A DNA stretch of 64,000 nucleotides from Bacteroidales bacterium (GCA_017446745.1 JAFSQF010000067.1:15010-79009); one strand, 5' to 3'. Numbered from the stretch's first letter, positions 31,045 to 59,480 are shown. Made by a program: numbers and translations. The notes: a model not told the origin generated them from the sequence alone.

Positions 31045-31977
31045 ATGAAAATCACTTGTGTAGAACCCTTAGGGATGTCGGAAGAGACCCTGAAGCAACA
31101 TAAGGCATTTTTTGCCTCCAAAGGACATGTATTTGCCTATTTCCTCGACCGCAGAGAGGATGATGCCACATTGACAGAAAGGATGCAAGACTCGGATATC
31201 GTTATCATTTCCAACATTAAACTCACGTCGTCAGTTATGGAGCGCTGCAAGAGCCTGAAGATGCTGTCTGTTGCTTTCACAGGCCTTGACCATATCGACA
31301 TGGGCTATTGCCGCAGCCACAACATCCAAGTGAGCAATGCCGCCGGCTATTCCACAACGGCAGTCAGCGAACTGGCCATAGGGCTTATGCTTGATGTCTA
31401 TCGTCGTATCACGGCTCTTGACACTGCCACGCGCGGCAGCGGAAGCCGTGGCACTTTCCTCGGCCGAGAGCTGCGTGGCAAGACAGTCGGTGTGGTAGGT
31501 ACAGGAGCCATAGGCCTTGCAACAATGCGTCTTGCCCAAGCCTTCGGGTGCCGTTTGTTGGCATATAGCCGCAGCGAACGTCCGGAAGCCATGTCACTTG
31601 GTGCGCGTTATTGCACTCTCGACGAGCTCATGACGTTAAGCGATATCGTCACATTGCATGTGCCACTGAACAGCGACACCTACCACCTCGTAGGAGAGCA
31701 CGAGTTGTCGCTGATGAAACCCACAGCAATACTCATCAATACCGCGCGTGGTAATGTGGTTGATATCGACGTGCTTGCCAAAGCATTGACAGAACGCCGT
31801 ATTGCCGGAGCCGGCATCGACGTCTACGAGAAAGAACCACCCCTCGCTGCCGACCATGCCCTGCTGTCGGCACCAAATTGTATTGTTGTACCTCATATTG
31901 GCTACGCCACACGAGAGGCTTTCGACATCCGTGCTGATATTGTTATAGACAACGTAAAACGCTATCTGAAAATATGA
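31045..31977 (+). CDS. D-isomer-specific 2-hydroxyacid dehydrogenase (NAD-binding)
   Basis: GKTVGVVGTGAIGLATMRLAQAFG Rossmann motif. Catalytic R/E/H context (INTARGNVVD...VVPHIGYAT). Confidence 0.88.
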   Translation: MKITCVEPLGMSEETLKQHKAFFASKGHVFAYFLDRREDDATLTERMQDSDIVIISNIKLTSSVMERCKSLKMLSVAFTGLDHIDMGYCRSHNIQVSNAAGYSTTAVSELAIGLMLDVYRRITALDTATRGSGSRGTFLGRELRGKTVGVVGTGAIGLATMRLAQAFGCRLLAYSRSERPEAMSLGARYCTLDELMTLSDIVTLHVPLNSDTYHLVGEHELSLMKPTAILINTARGNVVDIDVLAKALTERRIAGAGIDVYEKEPPLAADHALLSAPNCIVVPHIGYATREAFDIRADIVIDNVKRYLKI

Positions 31978-34364
31978 AACGTTTTTTGCCGATACTCCTT
32001 GCAGTATTGTTGTCCAACCAGGTCGCTTCCCAAGCCATCAGTATTGACGAAGCACGCGAAGCTACGTTGTTTTTCATGGCATGCAATGAACAGCGAAGTC
32101 AGATAGACAGTATGCCCCATCGCGCCACGCTGCGTACAGATGAGGGCTTGAGTGTGGCTTATGTGTTCGACCTCAGCAACTATGGCTTTGTCATCGCCGG
32201 TGCCCTTGACGATTTTGCACCAGTGATAGGCTATTCTTTCAAAGGCGTCTGGGACGAGGGCAGCAGAGTGGAAAACCTGACGAGCTGGCTTCAGGGCTAC
32301 GTGGATGATGTTGATGCAGTGATGCATAGCTACAGTCTCCCCGCGACCATAGAGAAGGAGCAGAAAGAGTGGCGCAGAGAATGGGAGGCCTTGAAGGGCA
32401 GGGACGGCAGCTTTTACGGAGCCAAAAGGGGCAAGTCGGTGGAAGCATTGTTAGAGACGGAGTGGGACCAGACGGCAGGCTACAACAACTACTGTCCCCT
32501 ATACAGCGGAGGCAGCTATTCGTGCCACGGCAGAGCACTGACGGGCTGTGTGGCGACGGCCATGGCTCAAATTATTCGTTATCATCGCTATCCCAATACC
32601 GGCTTCGGGCAAAGAAGCTACTTTCATAGTGTTTATGGCAGCCTCAGTGCGCAGTTCGATTCGGCATACTACAATTACGACCTCATGCCCGCCTACGTCA
32701 ACTATTATTCCCCCAGTCAGGAGCAAGCGGCCGTATCGCTGCTATGCTACCACTGTGGCGTTGCCGTCAAGATGAATTATGAGAATGTCAATCATACCAG
32801 TGGCAGTGGTGCGCATAGCAACGACGTTCCCGCGGCGCTAAAATATTTTGGCTATTTCAATGCATACTACCATGGCAAAAACGCCCATAACGACATCTGG
32901 GATTCGTTGTTGAAAGACAACCTTAACCAGTTGTTGCCGGTCTATTATAGCGGAGAAAGCAGTGCTGGAGGACATGCCTTCGTGTGCGATGGCTATCGTA
33001 ATAGCGGATACTACCATTTCAATTTTGGATGGAGTGGCAGTGGCAACGGCTGGTACACCCTGTCGAGTGTCAACGGTTACTCCACCCGTCAGGATGCGGT
33101 GTTCGACATCAAGCCGTCGGGTATAGGGCCTTTTCACGGACATTACCATGTGTCGCCCGACGGCACAGGCGACGGCACCTCATGGGGCAATGCAACCAGC
33201 AAGTGGTCAGAGGTGATGTCGGCGCTTGACATCTATGGCGGAGGAGAGGTATGGCTGAAGAACGGCGTCTATTATGGAGACACTGCTGCGGAGGTGGCTT
33301 TCACAATTGCGAGAGGAACCACATTGCTTGGTGGCTTCGACGGAACGGAGGAGAGCCCCGACGGGCGGATGTTCTCAGATGGCAACACGGTGCTAAGCGG
33401 CATGGGGCAGCGTCGCATACTTGACGTCCCGAGCAACATAGGCGGATGCAGCCTTAATGGCATTAGCTTTACTGACGGCTATGCCGCGTCGGGTGCAGCA
33501 GTGACATTGGAGGGGGGCGTGAAAGTGGAACGCTGCATTTTCGCCAACAATCGTTGCGACAGTCCTGATGGTGCTGCGCTCTCTACCAGCTCCTCGATGG
33601 TGCTCACCAGCAAGTTCTACAACAACCGCTGCGGAGCCGTCATTTTGAACGGGGTGCCAATGAAGAATAGCTTGGTGGCACACAACGACGGTTTCGGTGT
33701 TGCAGCGAACGGAGGCACCGTTGAAGGTTGCGACATAGTGTGCAACAAAGGTGTCGGACTGTTATGCTCTGGCAATTCAAAGATAAGGAACACAGTGTTG
33801 TGGCATAACGACAGCTCCATGGCCATTGCTGGCACGCTGACGATGACCTTCTGTGCTGCCGAGGGCTTTGGCGAGCGCGACAGCAACAGCAATTTCGGGC
33901 TGACCCACGAGAACCGGCCTGCCGAAGGCCTCGGCCCCTATTTTATCATGCCCGACACCACGGTGGGTGTTTCCGAAGAGTTGGGCGACTGGCATCTTAG
34001 CAGCCTCTCGCCCCTGGTGGATGCCGGCGACACACTGCGTGGTGCCATTTATTCCTACGACCTCGACTATAGCGGTCGGCAGCGTGGAGGACGCACCGAC
34101 ATAGGCTGTCTTGAATGGATTCCAGGCAATGCAATAGAGGCCACCGATGCAGACTGCCGAATGCGAGTGTTCCCTAATCCCTGCGGAGGCATGTTCACCT
34201 TGGATGTCGCCGAGGGTGGTCTGGTCAGCATTTATGACATGATGGGGCGTCTTGTGAAGACCCTGCAATGTCAGGGACGCACAGAGATAGACATAAGCCA
34301 CCTGCCCGACGGCATTTATCTGCTTCGCATGGGCATGACGACAAAAACGCTTATAAAGAGATAA
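31974..34364 (+). CDS. C10 (streptopain-like) cysteine peptidase with beta-helix region and T9SS C-terminal sorting domain
   Basis: N-terminal inhibitor-like prodomain, catalytic Cys context ALTGCVATAMAQIIRYH, His context GGHAFVCDGY, and a parallel beta-helix-like Gly/Asn-rich middle. The C-terminal roughly 80 aa (VFPNPCGGMFTLDV...GIYLLRM) is typical of T9SS CTDs. Confidence 0.85.
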   Translation: MKRFLPILLAVLLSNQVASQAISIDEAREATLFFMACNEQRSQIDSMPHRATLRTDEGLSVAYVFDLSNYGFVIAGALDDFAPVIGYSFKGVWDEGSRVENLTSWLQGYVDDVDAVMHSYSLPATIEKEQKEWRREWEALKGRDGSFYGAKRGKSVEALLETEWDQTAGYNNYCPLYSGGSYSCHGRALTGCVATAMAQIIRYHRYPNTGFGQRSYFHSVYGSLSAQFDSAYYNYDLMPAYVNYYSPSQEQAAVSLLCYHCGVAVKMNYENVNHTSGSGAHSNDVPAALKYFGYFNAYYHGKNAHNDIWDSLLKDNLNQLLPVYYSGESSAGGHAFVCDGYRNSGYYHFNFGWSGSGNGWYTLSSVNGYSTRQDAVFDIKPSGIGPFHGHYHVSPDGTGDGTSWGNATSKWSEVMSALDIYGGGEVWLKNGVYYGDTAAEVAFTIARGTTLLGGFDGTEESPDGRMFSDGNTVLSGMGQRRILDVPSNIGGCSLNGISFTDGYAASGAAVTLEGGVKVERCIFANNRCDSPDGAALSTSSSMVLTSKFYNNRCGAVILNGVPMKNSLVAHNDGFGVAANGGTVEGCDIVCNKGVGLLCSGNSKIRNTVLWHNDSSMAIAGTLTMTFCAAEGFGERDSNSNFGLTHENRPAEGLGPYFIMPDTTVGVSEELGDWHLSSLSPLVDAGDTLRGAIYSYDLDYSGRQRGGRTDIGCLEWIPGNAIEATDADCRMRVFPNPCGGMFTLDVAEGGLVSIYDMMGRLVKTLQCQGRTEIDISHLPDGIYLLRMGMTTKTLIKR

Positions 34365-34417: not shown

Positions 34418-35734
34418 TTATTTCACGGGGTGGTCGGCGTGGAATTTCTCCAGACGGGCTTTAAGGTCGGGGAATTGGTCGCGTTGCACCAGAGCCACGC
34501 AGGCGCGTATGCCTTGCTTGTGGCTTCCCGTGATGTCGAGGGCGATGGCGCTGATGCCATACCGGATAAGCTCGTTGAGGAGGTCGACGCCGCCGAAGCC
34601 GGGGTAGCAGAAGGTGAAGTAGAAACCGTCGCCGATATCTTCGCCCATATCCTTGTCGTACACAATAAAGAAGCCGTTGTCGGTGAAGAGTTTCTTCATG
34701 ATAGCGGCCTTTGCGCCGTATTCCTTGATGTCGTTGACGAAGTTGAAGGTGCCGTCGTTGGCGCCCTTAAGCATGGCGGCCATGGCGTACTGCACGCTGT
34801 GGGCGGTGCCCGACGAGAGGCAGTAGAGGGTGCCGAAGATGAGAGCGCGACCCAACTGGGTTTGGCTGTAGTAGCGAGCCAAGTCGGGGCATTCCATGTT
34901 GAAGAGCTTGGGGCTGCACACCATCATGGCTATGCGTTCGCCGGCGTAGCTGAAGCTCTTGGAGCCGGAGATCATGATGACGTAGCGGTCGGTGTATTTA
35001 GCCACGGTGGGTTGGAAAGGAGGTTGCCCGGGCACGCTGTAGTCCTTACGGAAGTCCATGAGGAAATAGGCGGAGTCTTCCATCACTACCACGCCATACT
35101 TGTTGGCCATCTCGCCGATGATCTGAAGCTCATGTTCGGTGAAGCAGAACCATGCGGGGTTGTTGGGGCTGCTGTAGATAAGGCATGCCACATCGCCGTC
35201 GCGGAGCTCCTCTTCCAGTTTGTCGCGCAGCTTGTCGCCACGGTATTCATAAACGTCGAAGCTCTTCATGGGGATGCCCAGCACGCGGCACTGCTGTTTC
35301 TGCACGGGGAAGCCGGGGTCGATGAAGAGCACCTTGGTTTTCTTGGCGTCGTAGCGCGTAAGGGTAAGGAAGCTGGCGAAGCCGGCCTGCATAGAGCCCA
35401 CGGTGGGCACGCAGCAGTCGGGCGTGACGTCGATGTCGAGGAAGTTCTTCACGAAGCGTGCGGCCTCTTTCTTGAAGTCGGCAGTGCCATAGATCTCGGG
35501 ATAGATAGAGGCGACGCCGTTCTTCAGGGCCTCGATCTGAGCGTCGACGCCGATCTTGGGAGCGGGCAGGCCGGGGATGCCCATCTCCATCTTTACGAAG
35601 CGGATGCCCGTCTCGGCCTCGACATCCTGGATCATCTTGCGCATCTCGCGGATGCTGGCTTTGCCGGGATTCTGAATCTTGTTGTTGCCCGCAATGCGGT
35701 CTATCGTTTCTTTCTGTATGGGTATTTGAGTCAT
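34418..35734 (-). CDS. class I/II PLP-dependent aminotransferase
   Basis: 438 aa. SGSKSFSYAGERIA contains the PLP-binding Lys. NNPAW is an Asn-Pro motif. Confidence 0.88.
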   Translation of the reverse strand: MTQIPIQKETIDRIAGNNKIQNPGKASIREMRKMIQDVEAETGIRFVKMEMGIPGLPAPKIGVDAQIEALKNGVASIYPEIYGTADFKKEAARFVKNFLDIDVTPDCCVPTVGSMQAGFASFLTLTRYDAKKTKVLFIDPGFPVQKQQCRVLGIPMKSFDVYEYRGDKLRDKLEEELRDGDVACLIYSSPNNPAWFCFTEHELQIIGEMANKYGVVVMEDSAYFLMDFRKDYSVPGQPPFQPTVAKYTDRYVIMISGSKSFSYAGERIAMMVCSPKLFNMECPDLARYYSQTQLGRALIFGTLYCLSSGTAHSVQYAMAAMLKGANDGTFNFVNDIKEYGAKAAIMKKLFTDNGFFIVYDKDMGEDIGDGFYFTFCYPGFGGVDLLNELIRYGISAIALDITGSHKQGIRACVALVQRDQFPDLKARLEKFHADHPVK

Positions 35735-35784
35735 GATATTATATTTTGGGTTTTAGATTAGTGTCGTTATTTCGATGATTATTT

Positions 35785-35920
35785 TTCGATATCTCGATGT
35801 TTCGTGGTTTCGATGTTTCGTGGTTTCTATGTTTCGTGGTTTCGATGCTTCGATATTTCGATATTTCGATGCTTCGATATTTCGATGTTTCGAAGTTCCT
35901 ATGTTTCGAAGTCTCGAAGG
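35785..35920. repeat. 17 consecutive in-phase 8-bp units (consensus TTCGATGT)
   Basis: Hand-parsed units: TTCGATAT CTCGATGT TTCGTGGT TTCGATGT TTCGTGGT TTCTATGT TTCGTGGT TTCGATGC TTCGATAT TTCGATAT TTCGATGC TTCGATAT TTCGATGT TTCGAAGT TCCTATGT TTCGAAGT CTCGAAGG. No indels. Confidence 0.9.
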
Positions 35921-35927
35921 GAAAAAG

Positions 35928-36875
35928 TCATTTTACATTCCAGTCTTTCAGTTTGGTGACATTTATGGGGCTTATTTCTTTTATTATGGTGTATATCTCT
36001 TTCTGTTCTTCGGCGGGAGCCGGGGTGAAAATGGAAACGATCTCGTCGATTTTCATATCTAAAAATTGGGTGACGGAGAGCAGGTTGCTGCGTTTTTTAT
36101 GCACCTGTTGCAGGTATTTAAGGGCCTGCATGATGTTGGCGCGTGCTTGAGGCTGGTCTTTGGTCATCATGTCAAGGCCAAGGCGATAGTAATAATAATA
36201 GACGCTGTGCAAGGCTTCGTAGGCCGAGTTGGTGTGGTTTTCCATAAACCAGTAGCGTGCTTTTTGGCTGTCGCCGGAGCGCCATCCTTTATACTGGCTT
36301 CCTGCCATGCTGCTGACAGTTTGTTGGATGTTTTGTGCCATGTCGAAGAAAGGGGCGCCGCCGTTGGGGCCATAAGAGTCGAAATAGAGGCCCAGCATGA
36401 TGTAGCAGTAGTATGCCAGGGTCGATGAGAGGTTGTCGTAGAAACTGTTGGGGTCAAATTCCAGAGGCTGGCTTTCGTTGAACGAGAAGAGGAGGTCGTT
36501 GCTTCCCTCCATATAGTTGAAAAGGCCGGTGGTGTAGTTGGAGTTATACACCGGACGGCGTAGCTGGACAGAGATCTGGCCGCCGAAGTCGGTGGCCGTT
36601 GTTCGTTGTGAGAGAACGATAGTGATAGAGCAGTCGATGCGTTCCACCTGTTCAAACTCCAGGTTGGTCCAGTGACGGTTGTTGACGAAATCCTCCACGT
36701 CGCGTTTCATGGTCTCGAAGATCTTGATGTCGCCGGTCTCGTACTGTTGGGTAGTGCTTTGTAGTTTCTGATAATTAATGTTCACTCCGCAACGGAACTC
36801 CTGAGCCCGGGCAGAGATGAGGAAAAGGTTTAATATCAACAGCCACAATAATTTCTTCACAATCAATGACAGCAA
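35928..36875 (-). CDS. DUF4835-like (PorD-like) secreted protein
   Basis: Signal peptide, then AQEFRCGVNINYQKLQ...FVNNRHWTNLEF...ERIDCSITIVL. I recall this as the DUF4835 pattern. This is from memory only, not a search. Confidence 0.5.
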   Translation of the reverse strand: MLSLIVKKLLWLLILNLFLISARAQEFRCGVNINYQKLQSTTQQYETGDIKIFETMKRDVEDFVNNRHWTNLEFEQVERIDCSITIVLSQRTTATDFGGQISVQLRRPVYNSNYTTGLFNYMEGSNDLLFSFNESQPLEFDPNSFYDNLSSTLAYYCYIMLGLYFDSYGPNGGAPFFDMAQNIQQTVSSMAGSQYKGWRSGDSQKARYWFMENHTNSAYEALHSVYYYYYRLGLDMMTKDQPQARANIMQALKYLQQVHKKRSNLLSVTQFLDMKIDEIVSIFTPAPAEEQKEIYTIIKEISPINVTKLKDWNVK

Positions 36876-37064
36876 TTTCGAGTTTGCAAAGATAACAAAA
36901 TAATAATGATAATATTGTACACATATAAGATATTGTTCATTAAAAAAACGATGAATAATGTATTATAACTTGATATACAACACAATGAGTTGTCAAAAAA
37001 TTTATTCACATTTTGTTGATAATTCTTGCACGTAAAAAGCTGTTAATAATTTAGAAAAAATTAG

Positions 37065-37072
37065 TATTTTTG
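37065..37072 (+). promoter_or_regulatory. candidate -7 box (TATTTTTG) for gyrB
   Basis: Exact TAnnTTTG match 30 nt upstream of the gyrB ATG. Confidence 0.45.
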
Positions 37073-37101
37073 CAAATTCAAAAAGAAAAAAGAAAAGATA
37101 G

Positions 37102-43735: not shown

Positions 43736-43909
43736 AGGAAACAGCAAAAAAACAGAGCAAAAAAAACAGAGCAAAAAAAGCAAAAAAAAACAAAAACAGC
43801 AAAAAAACAGAGCAAACAGCAAAAAAAAGCTTAAAAAAAATCAAAAAGCTTAAAAAAAAATCAAAAAGCTTAAAAAAAATCAAAAAAAACTTAAAAAAAC
43901 AGCAGAAAG
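43736..43909 (+). repeat. A-rich low-complexity tract with internal 19-20-bp units
   Basis: Almost no T or G-runs on the + strand. AAAAAAACAGAGC occurs 3 times, and GCTTAAAAAAAATCAAAAA twice plus a degenerate third. Confidence 0.85.
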
Positions 43910-45032: not shown

Positions 45033-45325
45033 AAAAAGAGGGGCGGCGAAACAATAAAAAAAACAGAAGGACGTTAAATAGAAAAAAAACTAAAAAAGAG
45101 AAATAACGCAGGGAGGGGGGGGCACAGGAAAAAGAGAGAAAACGCAGGAAAAAGAAAAAAATGCTGGAAGAGAAAATAGACGCAGGAAAGAAAAAAAAAC
45201 ACTGAAAAAGAGAAAAAAAAACACAGAGAAGAGGGAAAAACGCTGAGAGAAAAAACACAGAAAAACAAACAGAAAAAAAACAGAGAAAACAAACAGTGAA
45301 AACAAAACAGAAAAAAGATAAAGAA
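45033..45325 (+). repeat. purine-rich (A/G) low-complexity tract
   Basis: 293 bp of AAAAAGAGA / AACGCAGGAAA / AAACACAGA-type words, with almost no T on the + strand. Ends at the LolA-like start codon. Confidence 0.85.
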
Positions 45326-45982
45326 ATGAAGAGAATTTTTGTGATGCTTATGATGCTTGTGGCGGGGATGACAACGGCTATGGCTCAGATAACGCATACC
45401 GCCAAAGGGCATGTGGACCAGAATGCCGAAAGGATATTGAAGAAAGCAGAGCAAGCCATAGCTTCGGATGCAGTATCGTTCACTGTGACAATGGTCAGCA
45501 AGGATGCCAATAAAAAAGAGACGGCACGTATGAAGGCTGATGTGCTTTATAAAAAAGGCAAATATAGGGTGAGTTTTGAAGGAAATATCATCTATTGTGA
45601 CGGAGAGGCGACGTGGCATTGGAATAAGGAGAACGATGAGGTGGTGGTCAACAAGATGAGTGATGGTGCCGACGACCTCATGAATCCGGCCTCTATATTG
45701 GCTAATTATAGCAAGAATTTCAATGCCAAATATATACGTCAGGAGGAGAATGGCACAGCTGTGATAGACCTTACGCCCAAGAAGACAAAGAGCTACTACA
45801 AAATCAGGCTTTTCGTCAATGCCAACAACGGGCAGCTACAGCGTATGGAGATGCACAACTACGATTCGACCAGTGGAGAATATCAGATTAGCAACTACAA
45901 GAAAGGCATGAAAACGGCTGATAGCGACTTCATGTTCCCCAAGGCGCAGAATCCCAAAGTGGAGATAATAGATATGAGATGA
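45326..45982 (+). CDS. LolA-like outer-membrane lipoprotein carrier family protein
   Basis: Signal peptide MKRIFVMLMMLVAGMTTAMAQ, with a half-barrel pattern (FTVTMVS...YKKGKYRVSF...VIDLTPKK...KIRLFVN). Confidence 0.7.
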   Translation: MKRIFVMLMMLVAGMTTAMAQITHTAKGHVDQNAERILKKAEQAIASDAVSFTVTMVSKDANKKETARMKADVLYKKGKYRVSFEGNIIYCDGEATWHWNKENDEVVVNKMSDGADDLMNPASILANYSKNFNAKYIRQEENGTAVIDLTPKKTKSYYKIRLFVNANNGQLQRMEMHNYDSTSGEYQISNYKKGMKTADSDFMFPKAQNPKVEIIDMR

Positions 45983-51288: not shown

Positions 51289-51370
51289 TTATTTTAATTT
51301 CAATATTCTGAGGCATTGAGCTTTAGAGTTATCGAAGTATCGAAGCTTTGAAATAATAAAAAAAGAGAAG

Positions 51371-57065: not shown

Positions 57066-59480
57066 ATGATAGACCAAGCAAACAACACCAATAGTGGAGC
57101 CCCGACGGTGCGGAAAAACACCAACCGTTTCATCATACACAACATCATAGAGCTGTTCATGTCGGCATGGTATTGGATAATAGTGTCGTTGGTGGTGTGC
57201 CTGCTGGCGGCATGGCTGTATTTGAAGATGAGTCCCGACGTGTATTCAGTGGCGGCGACCATACAGATCAACTCGCCCAATCAGCAGGTGAACCAAGACG
57301 TGATGAAAGCCTTCCGCACGCCGAGCAGTGCGGAGAAGGAGATCCACTTCTTCATGTCGCGTCAGGTGATAGACGACGTGGTGCGCGACCTGAACCTCAC
57401 GGTGACGTACATCCAGAGCCACCTATTCCGCGACGAGGACCTATACGACAAGTCGCCGATCGAGGCCTTTTTTGTCGACAACAACTATCCGGCCTGCAAT
57501 TTCATAGCCGAATGTCATACAGGGGGCTACACGCTGACCACCATCGAGACCGAGCGAGGTGTCAGCCCATTGAGCTGGAAGGCCAACTACGGCGACACCT
57601 TGGTGACTCCCAAAGGCGTGATAGTCATCAATAAGCGTCCGGGATACAGCAATCTTGACAAAGAGGAGGTGAAGATACAGTTCCGTCCGTTGAGCGAAGC
57701 CACGTCGATGTACATGGGGAAGATGAGTGCCTATATAGTGGACGAGGATGCCGGCAACATACGTCTGACAATGAACGAGGAGAACCTGAAGCGCGGCATC
57801 GACATCATCAACCTGTGGATAGAGTCGTACAACCGCCATACGGTGGACTACAAGAACCGTGTGGCGCAGAACACAGCCCAGTTTATAGAGGAGCGCCTTC
57901 AGGTTATCAGCCTTGAGCTCTCCGATGTTGAGGACGATTTGGAGAACTATATGCGACAGCACAATATCAGCGACATGAACACCGAGACGGGGAGCAACAT
58001 CACCAGCCGCAACCAGTACGCCCAGTCGCTGGTCGACGAGGAGGTAGCGGTGCGCATAGCCCGCGACCTTCAGAACCGCATCCTCGACGCGCGCCCCTTC
58101 ACCATCCTGCCCAATATATCGATCAACAACGGCAGCGTCAACCAGCTTATCAACGAATATAACCAATCGGTGCGCGAGCGTCAGGAGCTCATAGCCAACT
58201 CGAGTACCGGCAGCCCGCTGGTGGCGGAGAAGGAGTCGCAGATGGACGTGATGCGCACCACCATATTGCGCACGATAGACAACTACATCGAATCGTTGCA
58301 GATACGCATCCGCGAATACCGAAACCAGGAGATTCGCACCACCACGGCCATCAACATGGTACCCACACAGCGTCGCGAGATGCAGTCGTTCACGCGTCAG
58401 CAGTCAATCAAAGAGCAGCTGTACCTTTATCTGCTCAACAAGCGTGAAGAGAACGCGCTGAAGATGACCATCACCGAGGCCGACACCCGCGTGGTGGACT
58501 ATGCAGCCGGCGGCAAGATAGCGCCGGTTCCGTCGCGCACCTATTCCATAGCCTTCATCATAGGGTTGCTGATACCCATAGGCGTGGTGATGCTCATCAA
58601 ATGGCTCGACGTGCGCATCCGCAGCAAGAAAGATGTGGAGGCCTACTGCTCCATACCGGTGGCCGGCATCATCCCCATGGTTGAAGAGGGAGGCAGCCGC
58701 GTCATCACCAAGAGCGGCAAAGACCGTTTCAACGAGACTTTCCGCATCTTGCGCAACAACATACAGTTCATGTGCGGCCAGGTGGAGGGTGGCAAGGTGC
58801 TGATGATGACCTCCACGATGTCGGGCGATGGCAAGAGCCTGCTGGCCTACAACATAGCCCTGTCGTTCGCCTATGCCGGCGAGAAAGTGCTGCTGATAAA
58901 CAGCGACGTGCGTAAGCGCGAGACGTGGCATGGCACCAAGGAGAAATACCGTCACGGCTTGTCGACCTATCTTGCCAAACGCGACAACGACATCAACGAA
59001 CTCATTATGGACGACGAGATTTGCCCCGACCTGAAGGTGATACATAATGGTCCCATACCGCCTAACCCTGCCGAGATATTGATGAGCCACCGTTTCGACG
59101 AACTCGTGGCATGGGCACGGACACAGTACGACTACATAGTCATCGACAGCGTTCCTATCGACATCGTGGCCGATGCCACCATAGTGAACCGCCTGGTCGA
59201 CGCCACCTTCTTCGTCATTAAGGAGAAGACCTCCGACCGCCGCATACTGATGGAGCTGGAGGAATTCTACAAGACAGGTAAGCTCAAGAACATGAGCATT
59301 ATCCTCAACAGCTATAAGATACGCAAGCACAGCTATGGCTATGGCGGTTATGGCTACGGCTACGGTTACGGCTACGGCTATGGTTATGGCTACGGTTATG
59401 GGTATGGCTATGGTTACGGCGACGGCTATGGCGACAGCAAGACCGACGAGAGCGAGGTGCTGAAACCAGCCGACAAATGA
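57066..59480 (+). CDS. Wzc/GumC-type polysaccharide co-polymerase and BY-kinase with (GY)n tail
   Basis: Wzz-like N-terminus with TM helices. Walker A MSGDGKS, A' LLINSDVRKR and B YDYIVIDSVP. C-terminal tract with 15 Tyr. Confidence 0.9.
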   Translation: MIDQANNTNSGAPTVRKNTNRFIIHNIIELFMSAWYWIIVSLVVCLLAAWLYLKMSPDVYSVAATIQINSPNQQVNQDVMKAFRTPSSAEKEIHFFMSRQVIDDVVRDLNLTVTYIQSHLFRDEDLYDKSPIEAFFVDNNYPACNFIAECHTGGYTLTTIETERGVSPLSWKANYGDTLVTPKGVIVINKRPGYSNLDKEEVKIQFRPLSEATSMYMGKMSAYIVDEDAGNIRLTMNEENLKRGIDIINLWIESYNRHTVDYKNRVAQNTAQFIEERLQVISLELSDVEDDLENYMRQHNISDMNTETGSNITSRNQYAQSLVDEEVAVRIARDLQNRILDARPFTILPNISINNGSVNQLINEYNQSVRERQELIANSSTGSPLVAEKESQMDVMRTTILRTIDNYIESLQIRIREYRNQEIRTTTAINMVPTQRREMQSFTRQQSIKEQLYLYLLNKREENALKMTITEADTRVVDYAAGGKIAPVPSRTYSIAFIIGLLIPIGVVMLIKWLDVRIRSKKDVEAYCSIPVAGIIPMVEEGGSRVITKSGKDRFNETFRILRNNIQFMCGQVEGGKVLMMTSTMSGDGKSLLAYNIALSFAYAGEKVLLINSDVRKRETWHGTKEKYRHGLSTYLAKRDNDINELIMDDEICPDLKVIHNGPIPPNPAEILMSHRFDELVAWARTQYDYIVIDSVPIDIVADATIVNRLVDATFFVIKEKTSDRRILMELEEFYKTGKLKNMSIILNSYKIRKHSYGYGGYGYGYGYGYGYGYGYGYGYGYGYGDGYGDSKTDESEVLKPADK

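Follow-up and report, generated by a model that had tools for sequence, protein, structure and literature searches.

Long simple-sequence repeats with units of 5-11 nt were surveyed by Mrazek, Guo and Shah (2007, as summarised in PMC4679880). Individual words of this kind have been described since. Rehm et al. (2015) treated the heptamer repeats GGGNATC and GGGGA(C/T)T of Xanthomonas and Nostoc, and the part of their paper considered here reports that most of them are transcribed and argues against phase variation (PMC4692102). MacGregor (2015) described TAACTGA direct repeats in marine Beggiatoaceae, cyanobacteria and five Bacteroidetes, for which an RNA-binding regulator was proposed (PMC4679880).

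In this study we analyse a stretch of DNA of 64,000 nucleotides, which we call the window. It corresponds to C113:15010-79009 of a rumen Bacteroidales MAG of 2.79 Mb (G000; 117 contigs, 52% GC), whose closest database relatives are uncultured rumen Bacteroidales MAGs. A sequence-only reading of the window had singled out an array of octamers at 35785-35920, upstream of an aminotransferase gene, and had likened it to an iteron or oligomerising-binder array or to a slippage-prone contingency tract. Our results show that the array is one copy of a species-specific tandem-repeat family and do not support a reading as an aminotransferase-specific switch. It is a new word in a new lineage of the known, functionally unexplained class of 5-11-nt long simple-sequence repeats.

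Three further kinds of repeat are useful for comparison. Iterons are repeats of about 17-22 bp that lie beside a rep or dnaA gene or an AT-rich origin and are bound by an initiator. Interrupted microsatellites, or VNTRs, ordinarily arise locus by locus. The STRR heptamers of heterocystous cyanobacteria were reportedly described by Mazel and co-workers in 1990.

Results

The array and its units

The array at 35785-35920 consists of 17 consecutive in-phase 8-bp units, which differ by substitutions only (0 indels), far beyond what is expected by chance. This agrees with the earlier count, and so does Tandem Repeats Finder (35784-35917, period 8, 16.8 copies, 73% matches, 0% indels, score 135). 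On the + strand, units 1-9 read TTCGATAT CTCGATGT TTCGTGGT TTCGATGT TTCGTGGT TTCTATGT TTCGTGGT TTCGATGC TTCGATAT, and units 10-17 read TTCGATAT TTCGATGC TTCGATAT TTCGATGT TTCGAAGT TCCTATGT TTCGAAGT CTCGAAGG. As this order shows, the unit variants are indeed interleaved and not grouped. A two-unit pattern of the word matches the window 10 times where 0.53 matches are expected, a number that 0 of 100 shuffles reached.

The sense strand at the array is the minus strand, as it is for both flanking genes. Read in this direction the unit is RYATCGAA (ACATCGAA, ATATCGAA, GCATCGAA), to which the array adds the private variants ACCACGAA and ACTTCGAA; the repeat is written (ACAUCGAA)n or (TTCGATGT)n. 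Reading the sequence, we find neither a start nor a stop codon in the sense unit ACATCGAA; the opposite strand contains ATG for two of the main three variants. An Rfam 15 scan of 35300-36300 returned mir-232 as its sole match, at 19.6 bits against a gathering score of 67, which amounts to chance.

One more unit had been reported 6 nt away from the array. It is present on the minus strand at 35771-35778, reading TTCGATGA in + strand letters, then TTATTT, and it is a decayed edge of the array. Degraded edge units are seen at other octamer loci too. Among the long octamer arrays of the genome the one at 35785-35920 is the most degenerate, and the + strand variants TTCGTGGT and TTCGAAGT are private to it. 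High degeneracy together with private variants suggests that the array is relatively old.

The porD-aminotransferase spacer

The gene downstream of the array encodes a class I/II PLP aminotransferase of 438 aa (34418-35734, minus strand; Pfam PF00155, E 4.6e-22), which attained no equivalog cutoff in NCBIfam. The gene upstream of it, also on the minus strand, encodes a DUF4835 protein of 315 aa (35928-36875; Pfam PF16119, E 1.2e-84). It is the T9SS gene porD (NCBIfam NF052317 T9SS_PorD, 297.6 bits, cutoff 170). The array lies 7 nt from the porD stop codon and 51 nt from the aminotransferase ATG at 35734. Both distances confirm the sequence-only reading, which had put the array about 50 bp from the start codon and close to the stop codon of a DUF4835-like gene. 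A leader of 50 nt, A-rich and G-poor, separates the array from the aminotransferase ATG (35735-35784, minus strand). The neighbours of the array are porD, the aminotransferase gene and gyrB; no rep, par or dnaA gene adjoins it. Elsewhere in the window, 31974-34364 encodes a T9SS-sorted C10 peptidase.

For the promoter search we used the Bacteroidetes-type -7 box TAnnTTTG in place of a sigma-70 model, which is the wrong promoter type for Bacteroidia. A scan for sigma-70 promoters and terminators gave counts that were not above those of shuffles. On the sense strand from 37101 to 35700 there is a single TAnnTTTG box, TATCTTTG (36887-36894, minus strand), a motif match about 12 nt upstream of the porD ATG. 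We infer that this box is the putative promoter of a porD-aminotransferase transcript. Since the same scan found no box in the spacer between the two genes, the array would most likely be intercistronic RNA of that transcript.

The gene order porD-aminotransferase is conserved in 79 related species, in which the aminotransferase proteins are 91-95% identical. At the DNA level the closest of the available relatives is about 83% identical at this locus. In these 79 species the spacer has a median length of 25 bp (IQR 12-49), as opposed to 193 bp here, and in most of them it contains no array. About 10 species hold arrays of other 7-8-nt words at this site, for example CAAGCAAT in L065 (>250 bp), CTAACGCA in L015, GCAGTTA in L067 and ATCAACNT in L068.

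In many relatives the divergent spacer between gyrB and porD (its equivalent in the window is about 36876-37101) includes a stretch of 40-110 bp with an 11-bp period (L019:2896-2943, L044:2842-2881, L053:2851-2893, L056:2808-2852 and about 10 other relatives). This may be a helical-phase (curvature) signal rather than a set of slippage arrays.

One word at many loci

A lag-based detector run over the whole genome found 171 short-period arrays with periods chiefly of 7-10, 136 of them intergenic. Among the genic arrays, periods of 9 or 12 predominate. The sequence-only reading had considered that arrays of arbitrary short words might simply be common in the intergenic DNA of this genome, with neither positional preference nor length variation. 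Common they are, as the 136 intergenic arrays show, but positional and strand preferences and some length variation are present. Whole-genome Tandem Repeats Finder reports dozens of octamer arrays next to a 9-mer family (AACCCCATC), a 7-mer family (AATCACT) and others, and at least four different word families share the same positional behaviour.

The octamer word in its + strand form is TTCGAT[AT/GT/GC]. A finder of core-based runs located 37 arrays of at least five TTCGAT-core units (22 in the longest; 3.8 kb taken together) and another 24 runs of 2-4 units. The genome search for further arrays that the sequence-only reading had proposed was thus rewarded with about 37 loci. Unit number ranges from 2 to 22 without a favoured size.

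The units of these arrays are remarkably uniform in their build. Over 438 octamer units, six positions are conserved at 89-97%, and the two remaining positions are dimorphic, with transitions only. Across the octamer arrays TTCGATAT (AT) occurs 102 times, TTCGATGT (GT) 93 times and TTCGATGC (GC) 68 times. The fourth combination, TTCGATAC (sense GTATCGAA), is almost missing, with 2 units where about 27 are expected if the two sites were independent. Nearly every array mixes the three variants, and the heterogeneity of their proportions between arrays is not significant (p = 0.054). Neighbouring units are slightly more alike than chance predicts at lag 1 (p = 0.02), and at lag 2 there is no association. 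A comparison of unit-strings between arrays gave no sign of recent block copying: the longest common strings are about those of within-array shuffles (maximum 6 vs 5.3, mean 2.18 vs 2.01).

The smallest runs include a copy that the sequence-only reading had noticed upstream of adk and had called inverted. This two-unit mini-array (TATCGAAG twice, 51329-51344, + strand) does exist. It is inverted only with respect to the + strand of the window: relative to its own gene it runs in sense, as the main array does, and the sense strand reads ATCGAA. It is followed by an A-rich tract, and 26 nt separate it from the start codon of the ORF of 189 aa that lies downstream. The ORF is likely adk, judging from its N-terminus MLNIVIFGAP.

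Other repeats occur in the window and in the genome. Tandem Repeats Finder reports further window arrays at 298-339, 43739-43899, 45125-45326 and 59332-59432, namely a 9-bp repeat of CTATAGAAT, long A-rich 11-25-bp arrays around a RAYT-like gene and 16 copies of GCTATG. A dispersed element carries about five AACAGCAATT decamers as its 5' part. It has a fixed length of about 115-136 bp, often lies at contig ends and is present in at least 40 copies of 81-100% identity, most of them 94-100% (e.g., C65:26025-26160, C84:15472-15607, C39:49695-49833, C102:10508-10643). It looks like a MITE- or REP-like mobile repeat that is distinct from the variable-length arrays. At least 21 AACAGCAATT decamer arrays were rejected as instances of the same phenomenon, and because they are part of this fixed-length element we excluded them from the orientation statistics below.

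Placement and linked genes

Genes were called with a simple iterative codon-score caller (1,873 genes, 77% coverage), so that some starts and orientations are approximate. Most arrays occupy spacers between co-directional genes, where they often begin a few nucleotides after the stop codon and end a few nucleotides before the next start codon. For the core families, 73 arrays lie between co-directional, 4 between convergent and 6 between divergent genes, compared with 63.7, 9.9 and 9.5 expected (p = 0.047). Arrays are found in the spacers ftsI-murE and murE-mraY, after lysS, before dapA and before a DPP-IV peptidase gene. Since the flanking genes are ordinary housekeeping genes, the arrays have no tie to surface variation or to any single pathway.

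Because the sense word contains no stop codon, ORFs can run into arrays. The sense word does run into some ORF ends, at C80:37802-37995 (ORF C80:37846-39615, minus strand), C12:38477-38531 and C58:51598-51705. ORFs that end in arrays have C-terminal tails such as (TSKHRNIE)n, (PINPIK)n and (NGQNGMNGF)n. Such tails may be array-derived protein extensions or mis-called gene ends.

Orientation, composition and folding

Orientation was analysed for the families of 7-9 nt between co-directional genes. Of 73 such arrays, 52 have the A/C-rich, G-poor strand as sense (p = 4e-4). For arrays that end within 35 nt of the downstream start codon the proportion rises to 35 of 39 (p = 3e-7). Where two-unit runs lie between genes of the same strand, all of them point in the sense direction throughout the genome (11:0). 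Within 12 contigs the orientation flips with gene strand, and 36 of 49 arrays follow the genes. These flips inside single contigs tie the bias to genes and rule out replication direction as its cause.

Arrays of the opposite orientation behave differently. They lie close to the upstream stop codon and farther from the next ATG (p = 7e-4), and the gap between array and ATG is typically a poly-A tract. The -30 to -1 zone that follows these arrays contains 58% A, against 41% genome-wide (p = 1.6e-4). The full genome-wide composition of this zone is A 41%, C 19%, G 13% and T 27%, and sense arrays exaggerate it (A 50%, G 7%).

Predicted RNA folding differs between the strands. Over 87 arrays the sense strand folds with -0.087 and the opposite strand with -0.171 kcal/mol per nt. 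For the 193-nt porD-aminotransferase spacer the sense RNA reaches a weak -26 kcal/mol (z = -2.1), against -48 for the opposite strand. The weak sense fold of the spacer and the variable length of the arrays, which ranges from 40 to 330 bp, speak against a REP/MITE-type element.

Length change between strains

To find the word outside the genome, we scanned metagenome contigs for four-unit TTCGATRY runs, which returned 120 contigs from many habitats. Only one of these, L163, is conspecific; the others mostly carry short, homogeneous arrays in unrelated organisms, so the octamer word itself is not unique in nature. L163 is 95% identical to contig C80, gaps included. We treat it as a conspecific strain because its flanks differ by scattered substitutions only. 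Its copy of a sister array, C80:24453-24530, is longer by exactly two TTCGATAT units (16 bp, in phase).

The locus at 35785-35920 itself is identical in three assemblies, with 0-1 differences in 5,317 bp. Contigs from other samples with identical flanking proteins are identical to G000 or one base off, and their arrays are identical. All comparable contigs come from the same strain, so that this agreement speaks for reproducible assembly and holds little information on mutability. In some cases a contig breaks off within an array.

Species-specific vocabularies

A three-unit TTCGATRY pattern finds 159 matches in G000 and no more than one in any of 60 congeneric species. Other species have words of their own. 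CAARCAYT is the word of G101, the genome holding L065, with 172 three-unit matches at no fewer than 20 loci. It has 33 matches in G102, the genome of L071, and at most one in eight other genomes. The aminotransferase genes of L065 and L071 are 88% identical, and the two share an orthologous CAARCAYT array with the same junction to the ATG. That an orthologous array has been kept across species at this distance suggests constraint or concerted evolution. The nonamer AAMCCCATY is distributed patchily: it is found in 13 of the 60 congeners, with 31 matches in G012 and 120 in G000. RYATCGAA, CAARCAYT and AAMCCCATY have a common build, that is, a constant core and two dimorphic positions whose variants are interleaved almost randomly.

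A different arrangement is seen in the spacer L071:3860-3976, and similarly in L017 and L004, where two inverted arrays of one word stand in the same spacer, a G/T-rich one after the stop codon and an A/C-rich one before the ATG. These inverted pairs could form a long imperfect hairpin.

Discussion

A probably tolerated repeat in an intercistronic spacer

We consider it probable that the array at 35785-35920 is an intercistronic repeat driven by slippage, and that its orientation is filtered by the constraints which Shine-Dalgarno (SD)-independent translation initiation places on the mRNA. The array would have expanded within an intercistronic spacer that in the conserved pair of porD and the aminotransferase gene is normally about 25 bp long. 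Whole units would be gained and lost by slipped-strand replication or unequal recombination, a change that is seen directly at the sister array and that we extend to this locus by analogy. Transcription from the porD promoter would probably yield a bicistronic mRNA that includes the array. Selection would then act on orientation and not on the 35785-35920 locus itself: near a start codon only an A/C-rich, G-poor, AUG-free and weakly structured RNA orientation would survive.

In Bacteroidia, initiation is tuned by mRNA structure and proceeds without Shine-Dalgarno sequences, according to the part of PMC6847099 considered here. Our observations on orientation fit this mode of initiation. The composition of the array would be an exaggerated version of the normal translation-initiation region of Bacteroidia. 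Hence, the array would be tolerated, and it may even help mildly as an unstructured landing pad for the ribosome.

Slippage explains how arrays change in length, but not how about 37 spacers of one species were filled with a single polymorphic word. Nor does it account for the fixed six-base core with two dimorphic sites, for the near-random interleaving or for the uniform proportions of the variants. One possibility is a dispersal burst from one polymorphic founder, of which the interrupted and stabler arrays survived; another is that a word-specific factor selects the word. It is quite unlikely, in our estimation, that a word-specific system exists, either as dedicated copy-and-paste or templated synthesis that seeds spacers or as a co-evolving nucleic-acid-binding protein that selects the word. 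If it did exist, it would account for about 37 filled spacers here against at most one three-unit match per congener, and also for the different words of the same plan in congeners and for the orthologous array at 88% identity.

Alternative explanations

The main rival to the slippage reading is that the arrays are cis-sites of a sequence-specific trans-acting factor and make up a species-specific post-transcriptional regulon. The factor would most likely be RNA-binding (S1-, Csp- or CsrA-like), would recognise the AUCGAA core at 8-nt spacing and would coordinate translation or stability of the downstream cistrons. The same idea was put forward for the TAACTGA repeats (PMC4679880). A regulon of this kind would be in keeping with a six-base core conserved at 89-97% over 438 units with two variable positions that show transitions only, although a young family derived from one polymorphic founder array would show such conservation as well. 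It would also suit a word that sits at about 37 loci and, within the compared congeners, is confined to this species. The words of other species share its layout, a constant core with two dimorphic sites, but at least four word families behave alike in position within this one genome. Strict orientation relative to the start codon, with the two-unit runs at 11:0 in sense, and an orthologous array whose word is conserved across species with an 88%-identical flanking gene speak for a factor too. On the other hand, the linked genes have housekeeping roles that are unrelated to one another, and unit number varies from 2 to 22 without a favoured size. Most of the 79 related species lack an array at this site, so that there is no conserved regulatory need. 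On balance we regard a trans-acting factor as unlikely. It is very unlikely that the arrays are rut-like tracts, meaning long, unstructured, untranslated RNA with more C than G through which Rho would cause polarity or attenuation of the gene that follows. Arrays do occur within the conserved essential operon ftsI-murE-mraY, where a strong polar effect would do harm, and arrays often lie just 0-10 nt from the next start codon. It is true that the sense strand is G-poor, that predicted structure is low and that arrays begin a few nucleotides after the upstream stop codon. C is about twice as frequent as G in the octamer, and the nonamer AACCCCATC has no G and about 55% C; the octamer, however, is A-rich and not C-rich.

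Two explanations act at the level of DNA, and both were raised by the sequence-only reading. A contingency (phase-variation) tract, in which unit number would switch or tune the aminotransferase via promoter geometry, seems highly improbable to us. What survives of that proposal is slippage in general, as the whole-unit length polymorphism at the sister array (two units, 16 bp) demonstrates; what finds no support is a switch for the aminotransferase. The array is upstream of a gene, and assemblies break inside some arrays, as one might expect of a contingency tract. But no Bacteroidetes -7 box is present in the array or downstream of it, the array stands between the two cistrons of a conserved gene pair, and the independent assemblies that could be compared have the identical sequence at the locus. 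The array-linked genes serve housekeeping rather than surface or adaptation functions. For the GGGNATC repeats, the part of PMC4692102 considered here comes to the same view.

The other explanation, a double-stranded DNA element such as replicon iterons or an array bound by a nucleoid or partition protein, is extremely improbable. Regular in-phase units that each contain a TCGA palindrome and that exist in many copies per genome might seem to invite it. Symmetric binding, however, predicts neither an orientation that tracks transcription nor poly-A buffers for one orientation only. The units of 8 bp are far shorter than iterons, rep, par and dnaA are not adjacent and nothing else related to replication is nearby, and the roughly 37 arrays are scattered over operon spacers beside unrelated genes. 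The iteron or oligomerising-binder proposal is thus not supported. In sum, we do not regard the array as an iteron, as a promoter element or as a switch for phase variation of the aminotransferase.

Implications

For annotation, the locus calls for caution: the array gives no ground to suppose that the aminotransferase is specially regulated, and spurious ORFs that cross it should be left out of gene sets. In uncultured Bacteroidales of gut and rumen there are species-specific intergenic vocabularies of 7-9 nt, and their orientation obeys the needs of SD-independent initiation. Two testable questions follow from this: whether long A/C-rich, G-poor leaders serve as landing pads in Bacteroidia, and which process spreads one word through dozens of operon spacers while a species exists. 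In practice, the arrays break short-read assemblies, and as VNTR markers they could be of use for strain typing. Taken alone, the locus is ordinary. It is the genome-wide rules and the spread of one word that merit the attention of specialists, even though the kind is already on record.

Comparison with known systems

The octamer arrays share their defining traits with the prokaryotic class of long simple-sequence repeats that includes the STRR, TAACTGA and GGGNATC families: units are repeated head to tail beyond chance, occur at many loci, lie mainly in intergenic DNA between co-directional genes and show a strand bias with respect to the start codon. As far as the summary in PMC4679880 goes, the repeats surveyed by Mrazek, Guo and Shah are likewise head-to-tail 5-11-nt units beyond chance, abundant in sporadic genomes and mostly intergenic. 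The survey defined a statistical class without a mechanism and predates the rumen Bacteroidales MAGs. Neither TTCGATRY nor restriction to a single species is described in it, to the extent that PMC4679880 reflects its content.

Ordinary VNTRs share with our arrays whole-unit length change, decayed edges and interleaved variants, which are expected to dampen slippage. The difference is that in G000 one word with the same three variants occupies about 37 loci. The STRR heptamers are said to be short tandem words dispersed through intergenic DNA with lineage-specific vocabularies, as are the octamers; they reportedly belong to another phylum, have a 7-nt unit and other words and have no link to SD-less initiation.

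The TAACTGA repeats resemble the octamers in that one word stands just upstream of the start codons of many unrelated genes, is oriented forward and differs by whole-unit indels between strains (PMC4679880). They contain forward stop codons and mostly have 2-6 copies (PMC4679880), whereas the octamer has neither stop nor start in sense and reaches 22 units.

The GGGNATC repeats, as presented in the part of PMC4692102 considered here, are likewise a single word that is found at many loci in varying numbers of units; they are enriched between aligned ORFs and have no tie to surface or mobile genes. Their G-rich strand is non-coding when they lie less than 50 bp upstream of an ORF and is coding only farther away, a rule that parallels the orientation of our arrays. 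They are 7-nt, G-quadruplex-forming repeats with a preference for four units (PMC4692102), unlike the octamer, which has no G-tracts and runs from 2 to 22 units. A poly-A buffer before the ATG accompanies arrays of the opposite orientation in G000, and none is mentioned for the GGGNATC repeats in that part of the paper.
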